DNA of 64,000 nt from Candidatus Oxydemutatoraceae bacterium. Its GTDB lineage: Bacteria; Pseudomonadota; Gammaproteobacteria; Poriferisulfidales; Oxydemutatoraceae. A model generated the notes under the pieces. The model ran no database searches, was not told the origin of the DNA, and worked only from the letters and a program-made list of their open reading frames with translations. Shown here piece by piece: positions 9,647 through 17,312 of the stretch (its first letter is position 1; every line of letters starts with the position of its first letter). The stretch is from contig OZ244779.1 of the NCBI GenBank assembly GCA_965219575.1, positions 524,769 through 588,768 on the forward strand. Reading direction: 5' to 3'. A program made the position numbers and the translations under genes.

Positions 9647-9722
9647 TCCTCGGTAGCTCAGTTGGTAGAGCGGGTGGCTGTTAACCACTAGGTCGGCGGT
9701 TCGAGCCCGTCCCGAGGAGCCA
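9647..9722 (+). tRNA. tRNA-Asn(GTT)
   Basis: TCCTCGG/CCGAGGA acceptor stem, anticodon loop CTGTTAA, GGTTCGAG T-loop, CCA end. Confidence 0.97.
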
Positions 9723-9752
9723 CTCTCCCCGACGATTTCAGAGGAACAGACT

Positions 9753-9857
9753 ATTCCCCTCCTGTGGAGGGGTGGCAGGCGCAGCCTGACGGGGTGGTCG
9801 CTGGGGTCTTGCACAATGTCACGCCGATTGACCTACCGGCTCAATCGACGGTTCTGT
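9753..9857. repeat. REP-like repeat between convergent tRNAs
   Basis: ATTCCCCTCCTGTGGAGGGGTGGCAGGCGCAGCCTGACGGGGTGGT plus the GCCGATTGA palindrome. Confidence 0.85.
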
Positions 9858-9884
9858 GCTTAACGACAATAAATGGTATCGACA

Positions 9885-9961
9885 TGGGGTGGACGATGGG
9901 GATTGAACCCACGACCTCAGGAGCCACAATCCTGCGCTCTACCGACTGAGCTACGCCCACC
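9885..9961 (-). tRNA. tRNA-His(GTG)
   Basis: Reverse complement folds as a cloverleaf; anticodon loop TTGTGGC, G-1, CCA end. Confidence 0.96.
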
Positions 9962-10030
9962 ATGTCTAAAGCCATTATAATTTGCGTCATCGTAGTTGCT
10001 CGCATCAACATAAACGACGGCAATTCTCTA

Positions 10031-10107
10031 TGGCGCGCCTGGCAGGACTCGAACCTGCTACCCTCGGCTTAGAAGGCCGATGCTCTATCCAAATGAGCTA
10101 CAGGCGC
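10031..10107 (-). tRNA. tRNA-Arg(TCT)
   Basis: Cloverleaf; anticodon loop CTTCTAA; CCA end. Confidence 0.96.
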
Positions 10108-10136
10108 ACATACAGATTTCAATCATTATATATAAA

Positions 10137-10213
10137 TGGTCGGGGTAAGAGGATTCGAACCTCTGACTTCCTGCTCCCAAAGCAGGCGCGCTACCAGACT
10201 GCGCTATACCCCG
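10137..10213 (-). tRNA. tRNA-Pro(TGG)
   Basis: CGGGGTA acceptor start; anticodon loop TTTGGGA; CCA end; TATAAT just upstream on the minus strand. Confidence 0.96.
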
Positions 10214-10360: not shown

Positions 10361-11695
10361 ATGCTAGAAATTAATAAATTTATACTAAAAGATGTACGTT
10401 GCTTCAAAGGCGCAAAGGAATTCAATATACGGCCGTTGACTTTTTTGGTCGGAGAAAATAGCACCGGCAAATCAACCGTCGTGGGTTGTTTCCAAGCGAT
10501 GGCACAACATCTCAGAGAAAATAATTACTTCTCTATAAGTGGGGCTTCAATAAACTTTAACTCAGAGCCTTTTCAAATGGGAAGCTTTGAAAATATTGCA
10601 AGAAGAGCAAGACCCAAAAACAAGGAATTTGAATTGGGTTTTGAATTCATTGACAACAGAAATAATGCCTCAAAATTTCAATTGTTGGTTACTCTTGCTC
10701 AGCAAGCGAATAGTGCGAATTCTATCGTAAAACAGGCATACTTCATTTTTGACGATGGCGAAATAATATTTCTTGATGCTGGCACCACCGAGAGTAATAC
10801 AACATGGGAAATCAAAATTGAAGAGAGAAACTCCAAGAAAATTTTCGCTATTGCATTAAAAGAAGACCAAAATCACTCCCTTTTTCGTAATGTAATAGGT
10901 TTAATAGCTCACTATGAATCAGATTTTAACTCTGAAGAAGAACTTAGCTCTGAAGAAAAACAATTTATTGAATTTATTAAGGATAAGAATTGGGCGAGAT
11001 TTTTAAGTTTATACTTTAGATGTTTTTCTTTTCCCCCTACCCAACCAAAACCTAAAAGAACCTATGATCCCTTGGGCAACATCGCAACCTCAAGCGGTGG
11101 CAATATTTTTCTAATACTTAAAAATTTTAGCATCAAAGAACCCAAAGATTGGAAAAAACTATACAAAAACCTTAAAGATTTCGGCACGGCATCAGGCTTA
11201 TTCACCGATATTAAAGTAAGAAAACTTGGTGGTTCATTAAGCGACCCGTTTCAATTAGAACTTAAAATCAGAAAGGGGGCGGCTACGAATCTGATAGATG
11301 TAGGTTATGGTATCAGTCAGATATTACCCTTGTTAGTGCCCATACTAGCAAAGGAAAAGCATACTTTTTTAATGCAACAACCGGAAGTGCATTTACATCC
11401 CAAAGCTCAAGCGGCTTTCACATCATTATTGGCGACATTAGCAAAACAAAAAGATCATACTTTTATTATAGAAACACACAGCGACTACATGGTTAATCGA
11501 GCCTGCATTGATATCATGAAAGGCAACATAAAGCCGGAGGATATCTCGTTGATCTATTTGGAAGCACAGGGTAAAGATGTAGAAGTCCACAATCTATGTT
11601 TTGATAAACAAGGCGACTTTGAGGGCGACCCGCCCGATAGTTATCATGATTTCTTCTTATCGGAAAGTCATAAATTATTGGGCTGGAAAGATTAA
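10361..11695 (+). CDS. ABC/AAA-type ATPase (AAA_15/AAA_21, DUF3696-like), probable defence/TA ATPase
   Basis: GENSTGKS Walker A, VGYGISQ signature, QQPEVHLHPKAQ, ETHSDY; AT-rich. Confidence 0.85.
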   Translation: MLEINKFILKDVRCFKGAKEFNIRPLTFLVGENSTGKSTVVGCFQAMAQHLRENNYFSISGASINFNSEPFQMGSFENIARRARPKNKEFELGFEFIDNRNNASKFQLLVTLAQQANSANSIVKQAYFIFDDGEIIFLDAGTTESNTTWEIKIEERNSKKIFAIALKEDQNHSLFRNVIGLIAHYESDFNSEEELSSEEKQFIEFIKDKNWARFLSLYFRCFSFPPTQPKPKRTYDPLGNIATSSGGNIFLILKNFSIKEPKDWKKLYKNLKDFGTASGLFTDIKVRKLGGSLSDPFQLELKIRKGAATNLIDVGYGISQILPLLVPILAKEKHTFLMQQPEVHLHPKAQAAFTSLLATLAKQKDHTFIIETHSDYMVNRACIDIMKGNIKPEDISLIYLEAQGKDVEVHNLCFDKQGDFEGDPPDSYHDFFLSESHKLLGWKD

Positions 11696-11697
11696 CT

Positions 11698-11838
11698 ATG
11701 TGCGTGATTATAGATACTAATATGATTGTAAATTATATTAACGAGACCGAGGACATGAAACCACGCTTGTTCAGATTGAGCGGCTTCTTCAATATTATCT
11801 GCCAACACGCCGGCGATTGCCCGCATCGCAGGCGATAG
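11698..11838 (+). pseudogene. Truncated PIN-like gene partnering the ATPase
   Basis: MCVIIDTN.. start 2 nt after the ATPase stop; becomes unrelated GC-richer sequence after ..EDMKP (~11763). Confidence 0.55.
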
Positions 11839-11914
11839 CTAGCCACCGCGAACGCGCCCAAAAGTTTAATGCTTACAGTGCCTTCTTGTCTTTGATTTTA
11901 ATATCTATTCTCAT
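11762..11914 (-). pseudogene. Relic of a Mu-like phage virion morphogenesis (gpG-type) gene 5' end
   Basis: MRIDIKIKDKKAL* then, in another frame, LSPAMRAIAGVLADNIEEA; contains stops and a frameshift. Confidence 0.6.
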
Positions 11915-11925
11915 TGTGATATACT
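11915..11925 (+). promoter_or_regulatory. Extended -10 promoter motif TGTGATATACT
   Basis: TRTGn+TATACT, 5 nt upstream of the conserved structured element; conserved at the same position in the second copy. Confidence 0.55.
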
Positions 11926-11930
11926 TCAAA

Positions 11931-12029
11931 TGAGGGCTTTGCGAGTTGGATTATCAGAGTTAGGTCGCTTACATAATCTCGCTACTACCAAATGCCTAAC
12001 CATTTGGTTTAGACGTCCCATAGCCCTCA
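11931..12029 (+). ncRNA. Candidate 99-nt structured RNA convergent on a PBECR2-like nuclease gene (copy B)
   Basis: Outer stem 11931-41/12019-29, hairpins 11949-78 and 11988-12007, loop-loop GTTAGG/CCTAAC, following T-run. Confidence 0.55.
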
Positions 12030-12548
12030 CTTTTTATACAACAGCCTTCCTTCCCTTCTCCCATCAATATAGCCTATTCTGCTTGCCGGTATTGCGTTCC
12101 AAAATAAGCTGCCGTCTAGGTTCTCCCGAGCAATCACCAGCATATTTTTTTTATCCTTAAAGAGCTTAATAAAGTGACAGCGGAAACCATTTTTATATTC
12201 AGTCAACCAAATTTCATTCGGGTCAGTCAATGTGGGTATTATCCAGTTAATAAACCTTTCTCTCCGATGGCTTCGCTTCATCAATATATGGCGAATATAT
12301 TGCCGGTGAATAATAACCGGTTCAAGCGGTGTATTAACTCTTCTCCATTCTTGTCCTCTTAAAAGAAATTCATCAACTTTTTCTAGCGCACTTTCTAAAG
12401 ATTTTGCACCAACTAAAACCTTAGGTGCTTTGTCTAACAATTCATGAGGATAGTCTTTTACACCGAGTAACCCGTAGTCTTGATAATCTGGCTGACCGGG
12501 TCTTATTCCGGCGACACCTCTACCATGACCGCCGACTTGCTTAGACAT
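12027..12548 (-). CDS. Stand-alone PBECR2-like (BECR-fold) ribonuclease domain protein, copy B
   Basis: RERFINWIIPTLTDPNEIW and YIDGRREGRLLYKK resemble PBECR2 domains found on phage MuF proteins. Confidence 0.7.
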   Translation of the reverse strand: MSKQVGGHGRGVAGIRPGQPDYQDYGLLGVKDYPHELLDKAPKVLVGAKSLESALEKVDEFLLRGQEWRRVNTPLEPVIIHRQYIRHILMKRSHRRERFINWIIPTLTDPNEIWLTEYKNGFRCHFIKLFKDKKNMLVIARENLDGSLFWNAIPASRIGYIDGRREGRLLYKK

Positions 12549-13343
12549 TCACAGGAGGGGAATACTATGTATTACCACTCTATGCTGAATAGGTAGCGAC
12601 CGCTTCTAGGGATACAGCATTTATATTTTTGCCAGAAGTTATAGCCGTAGGCTGCCTCTGCGGAGGCTTTGCCTGCCGACCAGTCATCTTTTTGTTGTGC
12701 GCGTTCGTCAAACGAGCTACATTCGTTTTCTACTCGAGGGTAAATCATTTGCCAGCGGTCGGTTGCTTCGTCGCCGACATCGCGTTGTTGAACCGAGCGT
12801 TGCTGCACACATCGGCCGGTTATCGCCAGTGTCGTATCTCGCATCTCTTGTTGCCATTGCCCACCCGAGGCGTGGCATTGTTGATAGCTTTTTGCATCGG
12901 AATCTCCCCACAGCTCCCATTGTTCGTCGTCGTGAACTTCGGCGGAGGTGATATTGTGATAGCTGTCGGGGTTGCCGCCGACTGCTTTTGCGGCGAGTTG
13001 AGAGACGATGTTCACCGGTGACTTCAGCGACAGCAATGTTGCTTCTTGCCAGGGACACTGACCGGCACTATTGGTAACCGTGAGGTCGGGTAGATAGTGC
13101 GATATTTTAGGAGTGACTCTGATACTGCACTTGGGGCTACACTTCAACCAAAAGCACAAACCGATGATTTGCCAATCCAAACACTGGACTTGCATGGATC
13201 TATATATCAACTGTGCGGTATTAAAACCCGCTAGGCTCTGCGCGGGCAATGCGCAGCATAACCACACGCAAGCGATTAACATATATTTGCTTATCTTAAT
13301 GAAGGATTTAGGGGTGTAGATGCGACGCGTTTCGGGCGGACTA

Positions 13344-13354
13344 TGTGGTATACT
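13344..13354 (+). promoter_or_regulatory. Extended -10 promoter motif TGTGGTATACT
   Basis: Same motif and spacing as 11915-11925. Confidence 0.55.
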
Positions 13355-13359
13355 TTCAG

Positions 13360-13458
13360 TGGGGGTTGTGTGAGTTAGATTGCTAGAGTTAGGTCGTTTA
13401 AGTAATCTTGCTGCTAACAAATGCCTAGCCATTTGGGTTAGATACCCCGCAACCCTCA
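13360..13458 (+). ncRNA. Candidate 99-nt structured RNA convergent on a PBECR2-like nuclease gene (copy A)
   Basis: Outer stem 13360-70/13448-58, hairpins 13377-408 and 13418-35, loop-loop GTTAGG/CCTAGC, following T-run; compensatory changes relative to copy B. Confidence 0.55.
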
Positions 13459-13977
13459 TTTTTTATATAACAACACACCCTTCCTTCTCCCATCAATATA
13501 ATTTATTCTGCTTACCGGTATTGCGTTCCAAAACAAGCTGCCGTTTAAGTTTTCTCGCGCAATAATAAGCATATTCTTTTTTCCTCTGAACACTTTAATA
13601 AAACGCCTGCGAAAACCGTCATTATATGCAGTTAGCCAAATTTCATTCGGCTCAGTTAATGTCGGTATTATCCAATTAATAAACTTCTCTCTCTGCTGTC
13701 CCCGCTTTATTAATATATGGCGAACATGATGCTGATGAATAATAACCGGTTCAAGCGGTGTATTAACCTGTCTCCGTTCTTGTCCCCTCAAAAGAAATTC
13801 ATCAACTTTTTCTAGCGTACTTTCTAAAGATTTTGCACCAACTAAAACTTCAGGTGCTTCATCTAACAGTTCACGAGGATAGTCCTTTACGCTGGGCAAT
13901 CCATAGTCTTTATATTTTTTTTGATTCGGTTCAACGATTGCGATGCCTCTACCATGACCGCCGACTTGCTTAGACAT
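13456..13977 (-). CDS. Stand-alone PBECR2-like ribonuclease domain protein, copy A
   Basis: Same length as copy B with about 40 of 173 residues different (manual count); PTLTEPNEIW and YIDGRRKGVLLYKK. Confidence 0.7.
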   Translation of the reverse strand: MSKQVGGHGRGIAIVEPNQKKYKDYGLPSVKDYPRELLDEAPEVLVGAKSLESTLEKVDEFLLRGQERRQVNTPLEPVIIHQHHVRHILIKRGQQREKFINWIIPTLTEPNEIWLTAYNDGFRRRFIKVFRGKKNMLIIARENLNGSLFWNAIPVSRINYIDGRRKGVLLYKK

Positions 13978-14000
13978 TCACAGGAGGGGAATACTATGTA

Positions 14001-15167
14001 CTACCACTCTATACTGAATAGGTAGCGACCGCTTCTAGGGATACAGCATTTATATTTTTGCCAGAAGTTATAGCCGTAGGCTGCCTCTGCGGAGGCTTTG
14101 CCTGCCGACCAGTCATCTTTTTGTTGTGCGCGTTCGTCAAACGAGCTACATTCGTTTTCTACTCGAGGGTAAATCATCTGCCAGCGGTCGGTTGCTTCGT
14201 CGCCGACATCGCGTTGTTGAACCGAGCGTTGCTGCACACATCGGCCGGTTATCGCCAGTGTCGTATCTCGCATCTCTTGTTGCCATTGCCCACCCGAGGC
14301 GTGGCATTGCTGATAGCTTGTCGCATCGGAATCTCCCCACAGCTCCCATTGTTCGTCGTCGTGAACTTCGGCGGAGGTGATATTGTGATAGCTGTCGGGG
14401 TTGCGGACGACGATTTCAATCGCTCGTTGAGCAATCACTGCCCCGGCCTTGACATCGTTCGGGTTTAACACGGTGCCTCGTCGCGGATAGATACTTCCCC
14501 AGCCGTTGTCGAGTATCGGTAGGTTGTCGGTGATTCCATTGTTCGGCAACTCGCTTCTACCGACCATGCGGCTACCCGGTTTCCAGCTTTCTATCCTGTC
14601 CAAGTCGGTGCCGCCCATGCCTTGCAGTGAACTTATGTCGATGCCGCGCCAGGTCAGAACATTGAGTCCCTGTCTGGAATTGAAATAGATGTGCATCGGC
14701 TTGCTTTGGCTTTTACACAAAAAGCGCACATTAAATCTAGACCCTAGTGAGGCGGTAGGGTTGCCTATCACCATAGCGTCTTTGAACTTCATCGCATAGC
14801 GACCCAACCGTCCACCTTGTCCGGGGTTGCCGCCGACTGCTTTTGCGGCGAGTTGAGAGACGATGTTCACCGGTGACTTCAGCGACAGCAATGTTGCTTC
14901 TTGCCAGGGACACTGACCGGCACTATTGGTAACCGTGAGGTCGGGTAGATAGTGCGATATTTTAGGAGTGACTCTGATACTGCACTTGGGGCTACACTTC
15001 AACCAAAAGCACAAACCGATGATTTGCCAATCCAAACACTTGACTTGCATGGATCTATATATCAACTGTGCGGTATTAAAACCCGCTAGGCTCTGCGCGG
15101 GCAATGCGCAGCATAACCACACGCAAGCGATTAACATATATTTGCTTATCTTTTTGATTGCTGCCAT
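14001..15167 (-). CDS. TraU-family ICE protein (PFL_4710/TIGR03756-like)
   Basis: Signal peptide, CLDWQIIGLCFWLKC, WGSIYPRRG, AQRA, WQMIYP and YKCC motifs. Confidence 0.85.
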   Translation of the reverse strand: MAAIKKISKYMLIACVWLCCALPAQSLAGFNTAQLIYRSMQVKCLDWQIIGLCFWLKCSPKCSIRVTPKISHYLPDLTVTNSAGQCPWQEATLLSLKSPVNIVSQLAAKAVGGNPGQGGRLGRYAMKFKDAMVIGNPTASLGSRFNVRFLCKSQSKPMHIYFNSRQGLNVLTWRGIDISSLQGMGGTDLDRIESWKPGSRMVGRSELPNNGITDNLPILDNGWGSIYPRRGTVLNPNDVKAGAVIAQRAIEIVVRNPDSYHNITSAEVHDDEQWELWGDSDATSYQQCHASGGQWQQEMRDTTLAITGRCVQQRSVQQRDVGDEATDRWQMIYPRVENECSSFDERAQQKDDWSAGKASAEAAYGYNFWQKYKCCIPRSGRYLFSIEW

Positions 15168-15899: not shown

Positions 15900-17312
15900 T
15901 CATGTGACTGCCCGATGATGTTCTATAAGTGCCGAACCTTTTTTGATTGCCAAAACCAGCACTATGAAATAGGCAATAGAAAAAATCAGTGGTAAATACG
16001 AAAAGACATAAGCGATAATCAAGCGATCCATATTGACATTGAACAGACCGATCCCTTGATAAAGGCTCTCGGTCACCTTGGCATCCAATGCTGCCACCAA
16101 AACATAGATCATCGGCATCGCTTGGATGCCCAAAATCCACGCCGCATAATACAGAACACCTATCAACCTTAAGCCAGTTGCGAGCAAAAACAAAGGGATA
16201 AAAAAGTACAGTGCCAGCAAAACAATCGGTTGTATGTATGAAGCGATACGCTCGAGTAAATAAGTGTAGTTGAAAGCTGCCGACACTTGCTCGGACAACC
16301 CTGCCAAACCCGAACCCGACATATAAGCCGCATCCCCGACATGTAAAACCTTAGCCGAAGATTGAGCCGAGTTGGCGGCAGCGGAATACGCCGCACCCGA
16401 ATGACCGAGTTCCAGCGGATTTGATTTGAGCATCGCTTTGACAATACGATCTTCTACATCGCGTGAACCCGACCCTAAAATACCTGCCGTTTCTACAGGC
16501 GGTAGTTGTGCCGTTGCCTGCGCCAACAAAATCTCCTTCAACCCTTTATTCGTCCCGTCTCCCAGCCACCACGCCGAGCAGCTTCTCACCAAATTGGGTT
16601 GCCAACGTTGCAATCGGGTCGGTAATAGAAAAGCGTCGTAATAGCCCGGTGTGTCTAGATAATAACGGCTGCCCAAATAGGCAAGGTCATCCGCCGAAGG
16701 CGGCATACCGCCGCCTTCATAGCCTATGGTTTGATATTGATAGCGCGCCTGCCCGTAGCATTTGGATGCAAATTGATAGTATTCGTTCAATATCGCCGGG
16801 TCTTGTATTTTGTTCGTCCTGATAATAGTCTCTACTGCGCGCCAATCGGTGAAGCAATCCAACCCGTCAAGTATTTGATAATAAATGCCGGCACCTACTT
16901 TGTGTATCAATGCCCAAAACAGCGGGATTTTTACACCGTCGGTCTCGGCGATCAATTCTTGTTTTAAGTCCTCAAAGACGGTCATCTCCTCGAATGCCGT
17001 ACCTTTGCCGTATTCTTGACAGCCGCCCGATAGATCCAAAACCTGTACTGCATCAATCCTGAAGATCGGGAAAAAAGCGAACAGCAAAACAAGCGCGGCA
17101 ATCACCGTGCGTATTTCCAGCGAGCGATTGGTGTCTTTATCTCCGTCGCCCGCACCTGCCGTCTTATACCAAGCGGAGAACAATGCGACGATCATAACCG
17201 CCAACACGATGCCCGACGAAAATAAAATGTCGGTAAAAAAGTTATTGAGCAACCAACCGTACAGTGTGAATGCTCGCTCCCATTCCGAGAATACCGACAG
17301 GCTGACACCCAT
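15900..17312 (-). CDS. TraG N-terminal-domain mating-pair stabilisation protein
   Basis: TLYGWLLNN N-terminus, KIPLFWALIH, F..KCY..AR, YLGSRYYLDTPGYYD and C-terminal TM helices. Confidence 0.85.
   Translation of the reverse strand: MGVSLSVFSEWERAFTLYGWLLNNFFTDILFSSGIVLAVMIVALFSAWYKTAGAGDGDKDTNRSLEIRTVIAALVLLFAFFPIFRIDAVQVLDLSGGCQEYGKGTAFEEMTVFEDLKQELIAETDGVKIPLFWALIHKVGAGIYYQILDGLDCFTDWRAVETIIRTNKIQDPAILNEYYQFASKCYGQARYQYQTIGYEGGGMPPSADDLAYLGSRYYLDTPGYYDAFLLPTRLQRWQPNLVRSCSAWWLGDGTNKGLKEILLAQATAQLPPVETAGILGSGSRDVEDRIVKAMLKSNPLELGHSGAAYSAAANSAQSSAKVLHVGDAAYMSGSGLAGLSEQVSAAFNYTYLLERIASYIQPIVLLALYFFIPLFLLATGLRLIGVLYYAAWILGIQAMPMIYVLVAALDAKVTESLYQGIGLFNVNMDRLIIAYVFSYLPLIFSIAYFIVLVLAIKKGSALIEHHRAVT

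Follow-up and report, generated by a model that had tools for sequence, protein, structure and literature searches.

What occupies the 3' side of two nuclease-like genes in a bacterial conjugative element, in the position that belongs in related phage toxins to a gene for an immunity protein, is the question raised by a 64,000-nt stretch of DNA from Candidatus Oxydemutatoraceae bacterium (contig OZ244779.1 of GCA_965219575.1, positions 524,769-588,768 of the forward strand; the whole stretch is called the window hereafter). Its two genes of the PBECR2 family, PBECR2-A (12027-12548) and PBECR2-B (13456-13977), both on the minus strand and each encoding 173 aa, are adjoined at their 3' ends by 99-nt elements on the plus strand at 11931-12029 (copy A) and 13360-13458 (copy B), which a sequence-only reading of the window had taken for folded RNAs and candidate antitoxins of the two nucleases. 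Comparison of homologous loci (labelled L### below, with G### for the genomes compared) shows that the element behaves as the gene of a small RNA, about 100 nt long, on the strand opposite PBECR2, its constant neighbour, and that the predicted RNA is a new structured class with strong covariation, absent from Rfam 15.

Re-examination of the two copies left the layout proposed in the sequence-only reading unchanged: the positions and the genes stand, both elements end on the TGA stop codon of PBECR2, and in each the T-run that follows the outer stem (for copy A at 12030-12035, plus strand) is antisense to the last Lys-Lys codons of the adjoining PBECR2 gene. Both RNAs are built on one plan, in which an outer stem of 11-12 bp (P1) closes two hairpins (P2 and P3) whose loops are mutually complementary, giving a three-way junction. 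The two copies belong to the same class (class 1), copy A with the loops GUUAGG and CCUAAC and copy B with CCUAGC as its second loop, and they fold with z scores of -3.5 and -3.1 on the plus strand and of -3.1 and -0.69 on the minus strand, respectively. Similarity between them begins exactly at an extended -10-like promoter, TGTGATATACT at 11915-11925 before copy A and TGTGGTATACT at 13344-13354 before copy B (both plus strand), and continues into the PBECR2 genes. The promoter claimed for both copies gains from the conservation of an extended -10 motif across the genus described below, whereas a simple promoter scan, which returns 8 sites in the region against 5.7 expected, lists the site of copy A, with its TG, and not that of copy B. 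The T-run, too, is partly borne out: P1 is followed by U5 in class 1 copies, but the run is poor in class 2, and a terminator scan that admits only loops of 3-8 lists neither element.

A first scan for relatives led to four loci in metagenome-assembled genomes (MAGs) that bear the name Candidatus Porisulfidus, as well as to a short contig with the label Aestuariivita. At L002 and L003 the proteins are 49-60% identical and the element combines wholly different stem sequences with unchanged loops and an unchanged -10 motif. Searches with covariance models, built from three copies (R1) and then from 16 (R2), detected 19 forward-strand sites; these sites fall in four genomes of a single genus, out of 61 related genomes, and 18 of the 19 adjoin the 3' end of a PBECR2 match. 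Seen from the protein side, 19 of 20 PBECR2 3' ends in the genus carry the RNA, 18 as strong matches and one, at the paralogue G000:813363, as a diverged 'class 3' element of 17.3 bits; at the PBECR2 fragment G001:624185-624313 the covariance model detects no RNA. Scores with R2 lie at 64.8-108.8 bits on the forward strand (107.6 for copy A and 101 for copy B) and at 16-23.5 bits on the reverse strand. A motif resembling TGTrGTATACT precedes nearly all sites of the genus, with variants in L047, L048, L053 and L040. Two loci may be mentioned separately. L054 (G004:C2:581738-581845) is an orphan class 2 RNA of 64.8 bits with the loop GUCAGG, without promoter motif or PBECR2 gene, and is probably a decaying remnant. 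L004, a 3.5-kb contig labelled Aestuariivita sp. MAG, carries two cassettes, and one of its RNAs is identical to an RNA of the Porisulfidus genus (L039:1050-1157), which points to mis-binning or recent transfer.

The fold was assessed in an alignment of 21 rows, 20 of them distinct (A7), in which 95.6% of 586 pair cells are paired, compared to 78.4% in shuffles, none of which (0 of 500) attains the observed figure, and to 35.9-41.9% after sliding of the partners; as the alignment was fitted to the model, these counts lean towards structure, although the slid control is still far lower. Both sides have changed in 17 of the 30 pairs, and the pair cells hold 70 G-U/U-G as opposed to 9 A-C/C-A combinations. 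The loops GUUAGG and CCUAAC are constant in the genus, with CCUAGC in three distinct rows, where it forms a U-G wobble. The three-way junction with complementary loops and its assignment to the plus strand, both initially read from the two copies, are confirmed by these counts and, for the strand, by the folding of copy B, and the alignment of homologues proposed as a check has returned a fold conserved with covariation, a G-U bias and an extended -10 motif conserved in the genus. Furthermore, the RNA keeps its promoter and its pairing beside PBECR2 genes that are frameshifted or mostly deleted (L041, L043, L045, L039), an orphan pattern that would fit an immunity role.

None of the 4227 covariance models of Rfam 15 matches the elements in the window or nine distant PBECR2 loci. 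Weak Rfam rows, SNORD24 at 13267-13324 (E 0.91) as well as folP and others, were set aside as chance. Neither element matches the Rfam tRNA model at E <= 1, and ARAGORN reports in the window only the four true tRNAs at 9647-10213. For 11700-14100 no RNA run was listed as containing the sequence, and three small metatranscriptome runs yielded no contig for 11850-14050, both neutral outcomes; the DNA run X1 covers all 30 bins of this interval.

The neighbouring proteins lead to the setting from which the RNA appears to come. Both exceed the curated cut-off of Pfam PF18810 (27.1 bits), PBECR2-A with 65.3 bits (E 7.8e-18) and PBECR2-B with 63.6 bits (E 2.6e-17), and they are 77% identical to each other. 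In a profile scan they match PBECR2 only, and no MuF N-terminal domain was found in the window. Elsewhere, PBECR2 forms the C-terminus of a protein of 445-459 aa with an N-terminal Phage_Mu_F domain (e.g. L048, L011), and PBECR2-A aligns to residues 272-443 of such a MuF::PBECR2 protein of 445 aa. Judged from these alignments, the PBECR2 genes of the window are the predicted C-terminal RNase-like domain of a MuF head protein whose MuF part has been lost. Genomes of the genus carry 4-7 PBECR2 copies or fragments each, many of them frameshifted or truncated and some of them clustered (e.g. G001:622933-624313, G004:1127794-1133050).

The next gene after MuF::PBECR2, 115-122 nt on, encodes a Phage_tail_S protein of 161 aa (Pfam PF05069) that resembles gpG of phage Mu, and its start codon appears on the RNA strand as CAT before the -10 motif. 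The spacer of 90-140 nt between MuF::PBECR2 and the gpG-like gene in Mu-like prophages is shown by this gene order to be the native site of the predicted RNA. In a phylum-wide sample of 401 genomes, PF18810 (PBECR2) occurs in 30 and PF04233 (Phage_Mu_F) in 70. Most PBECR2 spacers of the phylum have, on the opposite strand, a -10-like motif by the gpG start, an outer stem that ends on the stop codon and two hairpins, and of 28 distant spacers 24 fold with lower energy on this strand, a count that is slightly biased because the fold window was chosen on that strand. An automatic search for P1 failed on 17 of 41 spacers, including L058-L062, L070, L071 and L080. Run with filters off, R2 gives 6.8-17.3 bits (E 0.002-8) at the expected site and strand of distant loci, values that are not significant alone, and finds no match in two of 20 small loci (L174, L182). 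A tblastn search with the C-terminus of MuF::PBECR2 against 50,697 phage records had no match at 1e-5.

Taken over all MuF genes of the 401 genomes, the interval between MuF stop and gpG start is bimodal in length. None of the 13 rows with a spacer of at most 12 nt has PBECR2, compared to 20 of the 36 rows with a spacer of 66-173 nt; eight rows have a longer spacer and in 24 no gpG was found downstream. Among the 22 MuF::PBECR2 genes with a downstream gpG, 20 have a spacer of 89-138 nt, and in the other two the RNA adjoins the stop codon.

Outside the genus the loops change in sequence and are still complementary. A helix-descriptor parse identified the loop pairs GUUAGG:CCUAAC, GCGGG:CCCGC, ACGGG:CCCGU, UCUGGA:UCCAGA, CCUGGA:UCCAGG, GGCAA:UUGCC and CGCGAG:CUCGCG, and two more, CCCAGG:CCUGGG (L011) and GACAAG:CUUGUC (L022), were found by eye. 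According to the same parse, which mis-assigns L163, L176, L178, L181 and c2b and finds nothing in c2c, at least five base pairs can form between the loops in 10 of 25 cognate RNAs as opposed to 27 of 524 non-cognate combinations, and in a permutation at the level of groups 107 of 20000 draws reach the observed value.

Several MuF proteins with other C-terminal domains also have an RNA on the opposite strand of the spacer, and these RNAs carry canonical T-arms. The spacer RNA of L088 scores 35.6 bits on the Rfam tRNA model (gathering score 29) and has a D-arm and a T-arm, while a hairpin with a UUCG cap stands in for the anticodon arm; ARAGORN makes no call on it. The MuF protein of this locus shares 73% identity with gp30 (F) of phage Mu, and matches to the spacer occur in 77 of 5426 complete E. 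coli genomes, in which the NCBI annotation at this place is 'tRNA-OTHER'. In E. coli FORC_069 (L122) the order is MuF, tRNA-OTHER on the other strand (2524-2603) and a virion morphogenesis gene. Of 19 non-PBECR2 spacers, five contain a strict T-arm, compared to none of 20 PBECR2 spacers, so that the type of RNA follows the domain family. The tRNA mimicry suggested for the window becomes more likely with these sister RNAs, which lie in the same slot and are truly tRNA-like; the elements of the window have no tRNA match themselves. A third type of RNA was noted in the spacers of L097, L102 and L157, which share a conserved 5' hairpin that includes GUGACACGGU and lie by MuF proteins with a 'KQ...H' motif at the C-terminus; in the RNA of L097 the loops CCAUUC and GAAUGG are complementary.

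In phage Mu itself (L117, AF083977.1), the F and G genes overlap at 1590-1593 and there is no spacer. The five long proteins of the Mu F type that have no spacer (Mu, L107, L119, L121, L150) all lack a His-bearing segment, which is kept in the spacer-bearing L122 of E. coli, L088, L118 (Pasteurella phage Pmp9), L109 and L139. The other proteins without a spacer are four long ones with the MuF domain at the C-terminus and two short MuF proteins. Ralstonia phage RS138 (L120) is ambiguous, since its F seems to be frameshifted near the C-terminal domain; MuF-like matches fall in two frames there, and the annotated tail is of low complexity. Mu's own C-terminal PBECR domain is described as inactive and its orthologues as apparently active (Iyer 2017, PMC5512222).

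The reading preferred here is that the RNA, tRNA-shaped, neutralises the PBECR2 RNase, a proposal that draws on genomic context and co-occurrence and to which we give slightly less than an even chance. The RNA would be transcribed from an extended -10 promoter of its own, without dependence on the late or transfer operon, and would fold into a compact body like the elbow, or upper half, of a tRNA, with the pairing between the loops in the role of the contact between D-loop and T-loop. It could then bind the RNase as an uncleavable look-alike of a tRNA-type substrate, so that the carrier cell would be protected against the enzyme that it encodes itself or against an enzyme that a related element delivers. 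In this way, immunity by RNA would occupy the slot that belongs in other MuF toxins to a small immunity protein. The placement of the RNA in an immunity slot, claimed from the window alone, agrees in position with the usual immunity open reading frame (ORF) of MuF toxins, but the genes it adjoins turned out to be C-terminal fragments of MuF::PBECR2 rather than free-standing toxins. A wider version of the proposal is possible, and we hold it more tentatively: a superfamily of tRNA-shaped RNAs would serve as immunity factors for the BECR-type RNase domains that are found on MuF proteins of Mu-like phages and were captured by conjugative elements, some of the RNAs with true D- and T-arms and others with a Watson-Crick loop-loop elbow, each matched to its RNase family and exchanged as a cassette.

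Several observations weigh against this proposal. On the side of the protein, PBECR2 was found in the literature searched in a single paper, as a prediction. An AF2 model (pLDDT 79.4) found no match at E <= 0.001 in a Foldseek search, and VIA-align ranks the tRNase domain of colicin D (5znm_B) second with a Z of 4.0 (rmsd 3.1 over 80 aligned residues), which is tied with unrelated folds and inside noise. In four of eight class 2 PBECR2 proteins, a Tyr replaces the conserved His, and the RNA is still kept. On the side of the RNA, class 2 copies have no clean U-run, and in many distant loci the '-10' reads TATCCT, which may simply be a ribosome-binding site of gpG seen in reverse complement, so that the promoter reading is secure only in the genus and in loci of the E. 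coli type. A first test of loop complementarity, made on minimum-energy folds, was not significant (cognate mean 4.0, non-cognate 3.5, p = 0.078); several of these folds were visibly wrong, stem bases entered the comparison, and the helix-descriptor parse superseded the test. The counts that join MuF genes, spacers and PBECR2 come from related, non-independent sequences and are suggestive rather than a statistical test. Finally, RNA class follows protein clade in the PBECR2 tree, class 2 representing one change (support 67/63), but in neighbouring DNA this tracking would reflect linkage only and shows no co-evolution.

Two other explanations, both unlikely in our estimate, grant that there is an RNA gene and differ over its function. 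The first is a regulator in cis, an antisense RNA whose target would be the late transcript of MuF-gpG, at the spacer and the 3' end, or, in the conjugative element, the 3' untranslated region of PBECR2; by inducing cleavage or blocking expression it would lock late or toxin genes. The OOP RNA of lambda and antitoxin RNAs of the RatA/SR4 type are convergent antisense RNAs and provide models for such a regulator. The layout would suit it, being convergent with overlap of the stop codon, as would the fact that the RNA spans nearly the whole spacer with its promoter adjoining the gpG start codon, and without a clear terminator the class 2 RNAs might extend into sequence antisense to the coding region. 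However, antisense pairing has no need for intramolecular loops that covary between lineages or for the T-arms and D-arms of the sister RNAs, it leaves the missing spacer unexplained where the C-terminal domain is absent or has no His segment, and it does not account for the RNA retained beside largely deleted PBECR2 genes.

The second explanation, to which we attach a similarly low probability, is an RNA partner that is no inhibitor: a cofactor, a guide or a substrate of the RNase, an RNA packed with MuF in the capsid, or a decoy for host defences that cut tRNA. Phage tRNAs are known to counter anticodon nucleases. The co-occurrence with the domain and the likeness to tRNA would fit any specific partnership of RNA and protein, and PBECR domains have been proposed as injected effectors that act on host RNAs (Iyer 2017, PMC5512222). 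A decoy against host defences, however, need not follow whether an RNase domain adjoins it or which family that domain belongs to, and for a cofactor the persistence beside dead RNase genes is unexpected, although that persistence could merely be recent. Activation and inhibition of the RNase by the predicted RNA cannot be separated by these data. That no RNA gene exists here, and that the element is a short peptide coupled to the stop codon, a structure of the sense-strand mRNA or a two-way terminator, is very improbable: a frame of about 34 codons, raised as an alternative from the outset, is indeed open in copies A and B, the minus strand of copy A also folds well, and P1 with the T-run looks like a terminator in class 1, but the frame is broken by stops or indels in L040, L043, L004 and L039 and closed in all class 2 copies, so that the peptide alternative fails, and the excess of G-U over A-C cells, the poor minus-strand fold of copy B and the tRNA-like sister RNAs called on the strand opposite the genes speak for an RNA, whereas for a terminator two inner hairpins and covarying loops would be superfluous.

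Among the closest known systems are the OOP RNA of lambda and the txpA/RatA and bsrG/SR4 pairs of B. subtilis, in which a small RNA with its own promoter is convergent with a prophage gene and overlaps its 3' end. These act by long antisense pairing and do not require a conserved compact fold, whereas here the overlap is confined to the stop codon (and the T-run in class 1) and the fold covaries together with its tertiary contact. In architecture, an outer stem that closes two hairpins tied together by loop pairing recalls the purine riboswitch aptamers and the elbow of tRNA. Unlike in the riboswitches, a ligand pocket or expression platform is not evident here, the RNA appears as a free-standing gene rather than a 5' leader, and it has no Rfam riboswitch match. 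In type I systems an antisense RNA is directed against a small hydrophobic peptide; the neighbour here is an RNase-like protein of 173 aa, and the overlap with its ORF comprises the stop codon and a few bases, although pairing with a 3' untranslated region is conceivable.

The type III systems (ToxIN, CptIN, TenpIN) share with the locus, as described in part of the source, an endoRNase bound by an adjacent folded, pseudoknotted RNA on mobile elements (PMC8860590), binding that is only proposed here. However, the type III antitoxin consists of tandem repeats that are processed by the toxin and lie upstream in one operon, whereas the RNA described here is single-copy, convergent, downstream and preceded by its own putative promoter; the only repeats found at the locus are the two whole cassettes. 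Moreover, type III toxins have a ToxN-like fold, in contrast to the PBECR2/BECR family, natively a domain of a virion protein. The polymorphic MuF toxins of temperate phages combine MuF with a C-terminal domain of the toxin type, as do the MuF::PBECR2 relatives, and protection is expected from directly downstream; the pertinent section reports a small immunity ORF for 89.4% of 191 MuF toxin genes (Jamet 2017, PMC5576092). At the loci studied here there is no conserved downstream ORF but a structured RNA gene on the other strand, and the genes of the window, unlike those toxins, have no N-terminal Phage_Mu_F and lie in a conjugative element. A further likeness is the tRNA-OTHER gene of E. coli, which has the same slot, strand, abutment on the MuF stop, outer stem and hairpins with touching loops as the RNA of the window, but differs in its canonical D- and T-arms, whereas the latter has Watson-Crick pairing between its loops and goes with PBECR2. 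An RNA that would neutralise a protein RNase thus recalls type III, yet the defining features of type III, of type I and of the classic MuF toxin-immunity layout are absent. A full-text search, which mostly excluded subscription journals and did not extend to supplements, found no paper on an RNA partner of PBECR or MuF domains or on a tRNA-like gene in this slot. The sequence-only reading, which knew of no description of the pairing, agrees with this search; the only prior trace of it seen is the automatic annotation of the E. coli sister RNA as tRNA-OTHER by the NCBI pipeline.

The surrounding genes place the two cassettes in the transfer region of an integrative conjugative element. The order on the minus strand is TraG_N (15900-17312), an ORF of 242 aa, an intact TraU-like gene (14001-15167; Pfam PF06834, E 2.4e-19) directly upstream of PBECR2-B, PBECR2-B, a traU' remnant and PBECR2-A. 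The remnant (12572-13312, the upper limit being approximate) repeats the ends of traU with the middle of the gene deleted: 12511-12810 equals 13940-14239 at 98% and 12967-13266 equals 14822-15121 at 100%. The Pfam TraU match at this place falls on a 295-aa read-through frame; the ORF listed there continues through the antisense of RNA B and is an artefact. Identity is 98-100% between the traU flanks, whereas the [PBECR2 + RNA] cassettes A and B are only 78% alike, and therefore the pair did not arise by a recent tandem duplication with divergence in situ. The element is indeed present twice, as had been noted, but the two cassettes are best described, from this comparison of flanks and contents, as an array of different [PBECR2 + RNA] units behind traU, as in arrays of toxin/immunity modules.

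Beside copy A lies a remnant of a gpG-like virion morphogenesis gene (11764-11914, minus strand), of which the first ~50 codons survive, interrupted by stops and a frameshift; a tblastn search for the 161-aa gene of L051 finds it with E values of 3.4e-10 and 3.5e-5. Such a remnant is found beside copy A only, copy B being without a gpG start codon, and the similarity between cassettes stops at the promoter even where gpG is missing (copy B, L037). Next to cassette A lies, on the plus strand, a gene for an ABC-ATPase of 444 aa (10361-11695), which matches the defence models NsnB (Menshen; E 8.8e-42) and AriA (PARIS; E 1.5e-25) and is followed only by an ORF of 46 codons without match (11698-11838, plus strand). 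The partner gene of the ATPase may have been lost at the boundary where the gpG remnant and the cassette start. The four tRNA genes at 9647-10213, for Asn on the plus strand and for His, Arg and Pro on the minus strand, lie close to the end of the conjugative element and may mark its integration site.

MuF proteins with C-terminal RNase domains are widespread, and the proposed role of the RNA bears on the question how the producing or lysogenic cell tolerates them. If the proposed neutralisation is true, it would add an RNA-based branch to the biology of toxin and immunity, with the first RNA 'immunity gene' of an effector resembling polymorphic toxins. It would also represent a new way to block a tRNase, by an uncleavable look-alike of its substrate, and make a compact, naturally occurring RNA available as an inhibitor of a family of tRNases. 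In addition, it would explain the orphan 'tRNA-OTHER' genes of Mu-like prophages in E. coli. The system is directly testable in E. coli, where the tRNA-OTHER locus offers a tractable model for the whole class of RNAs.

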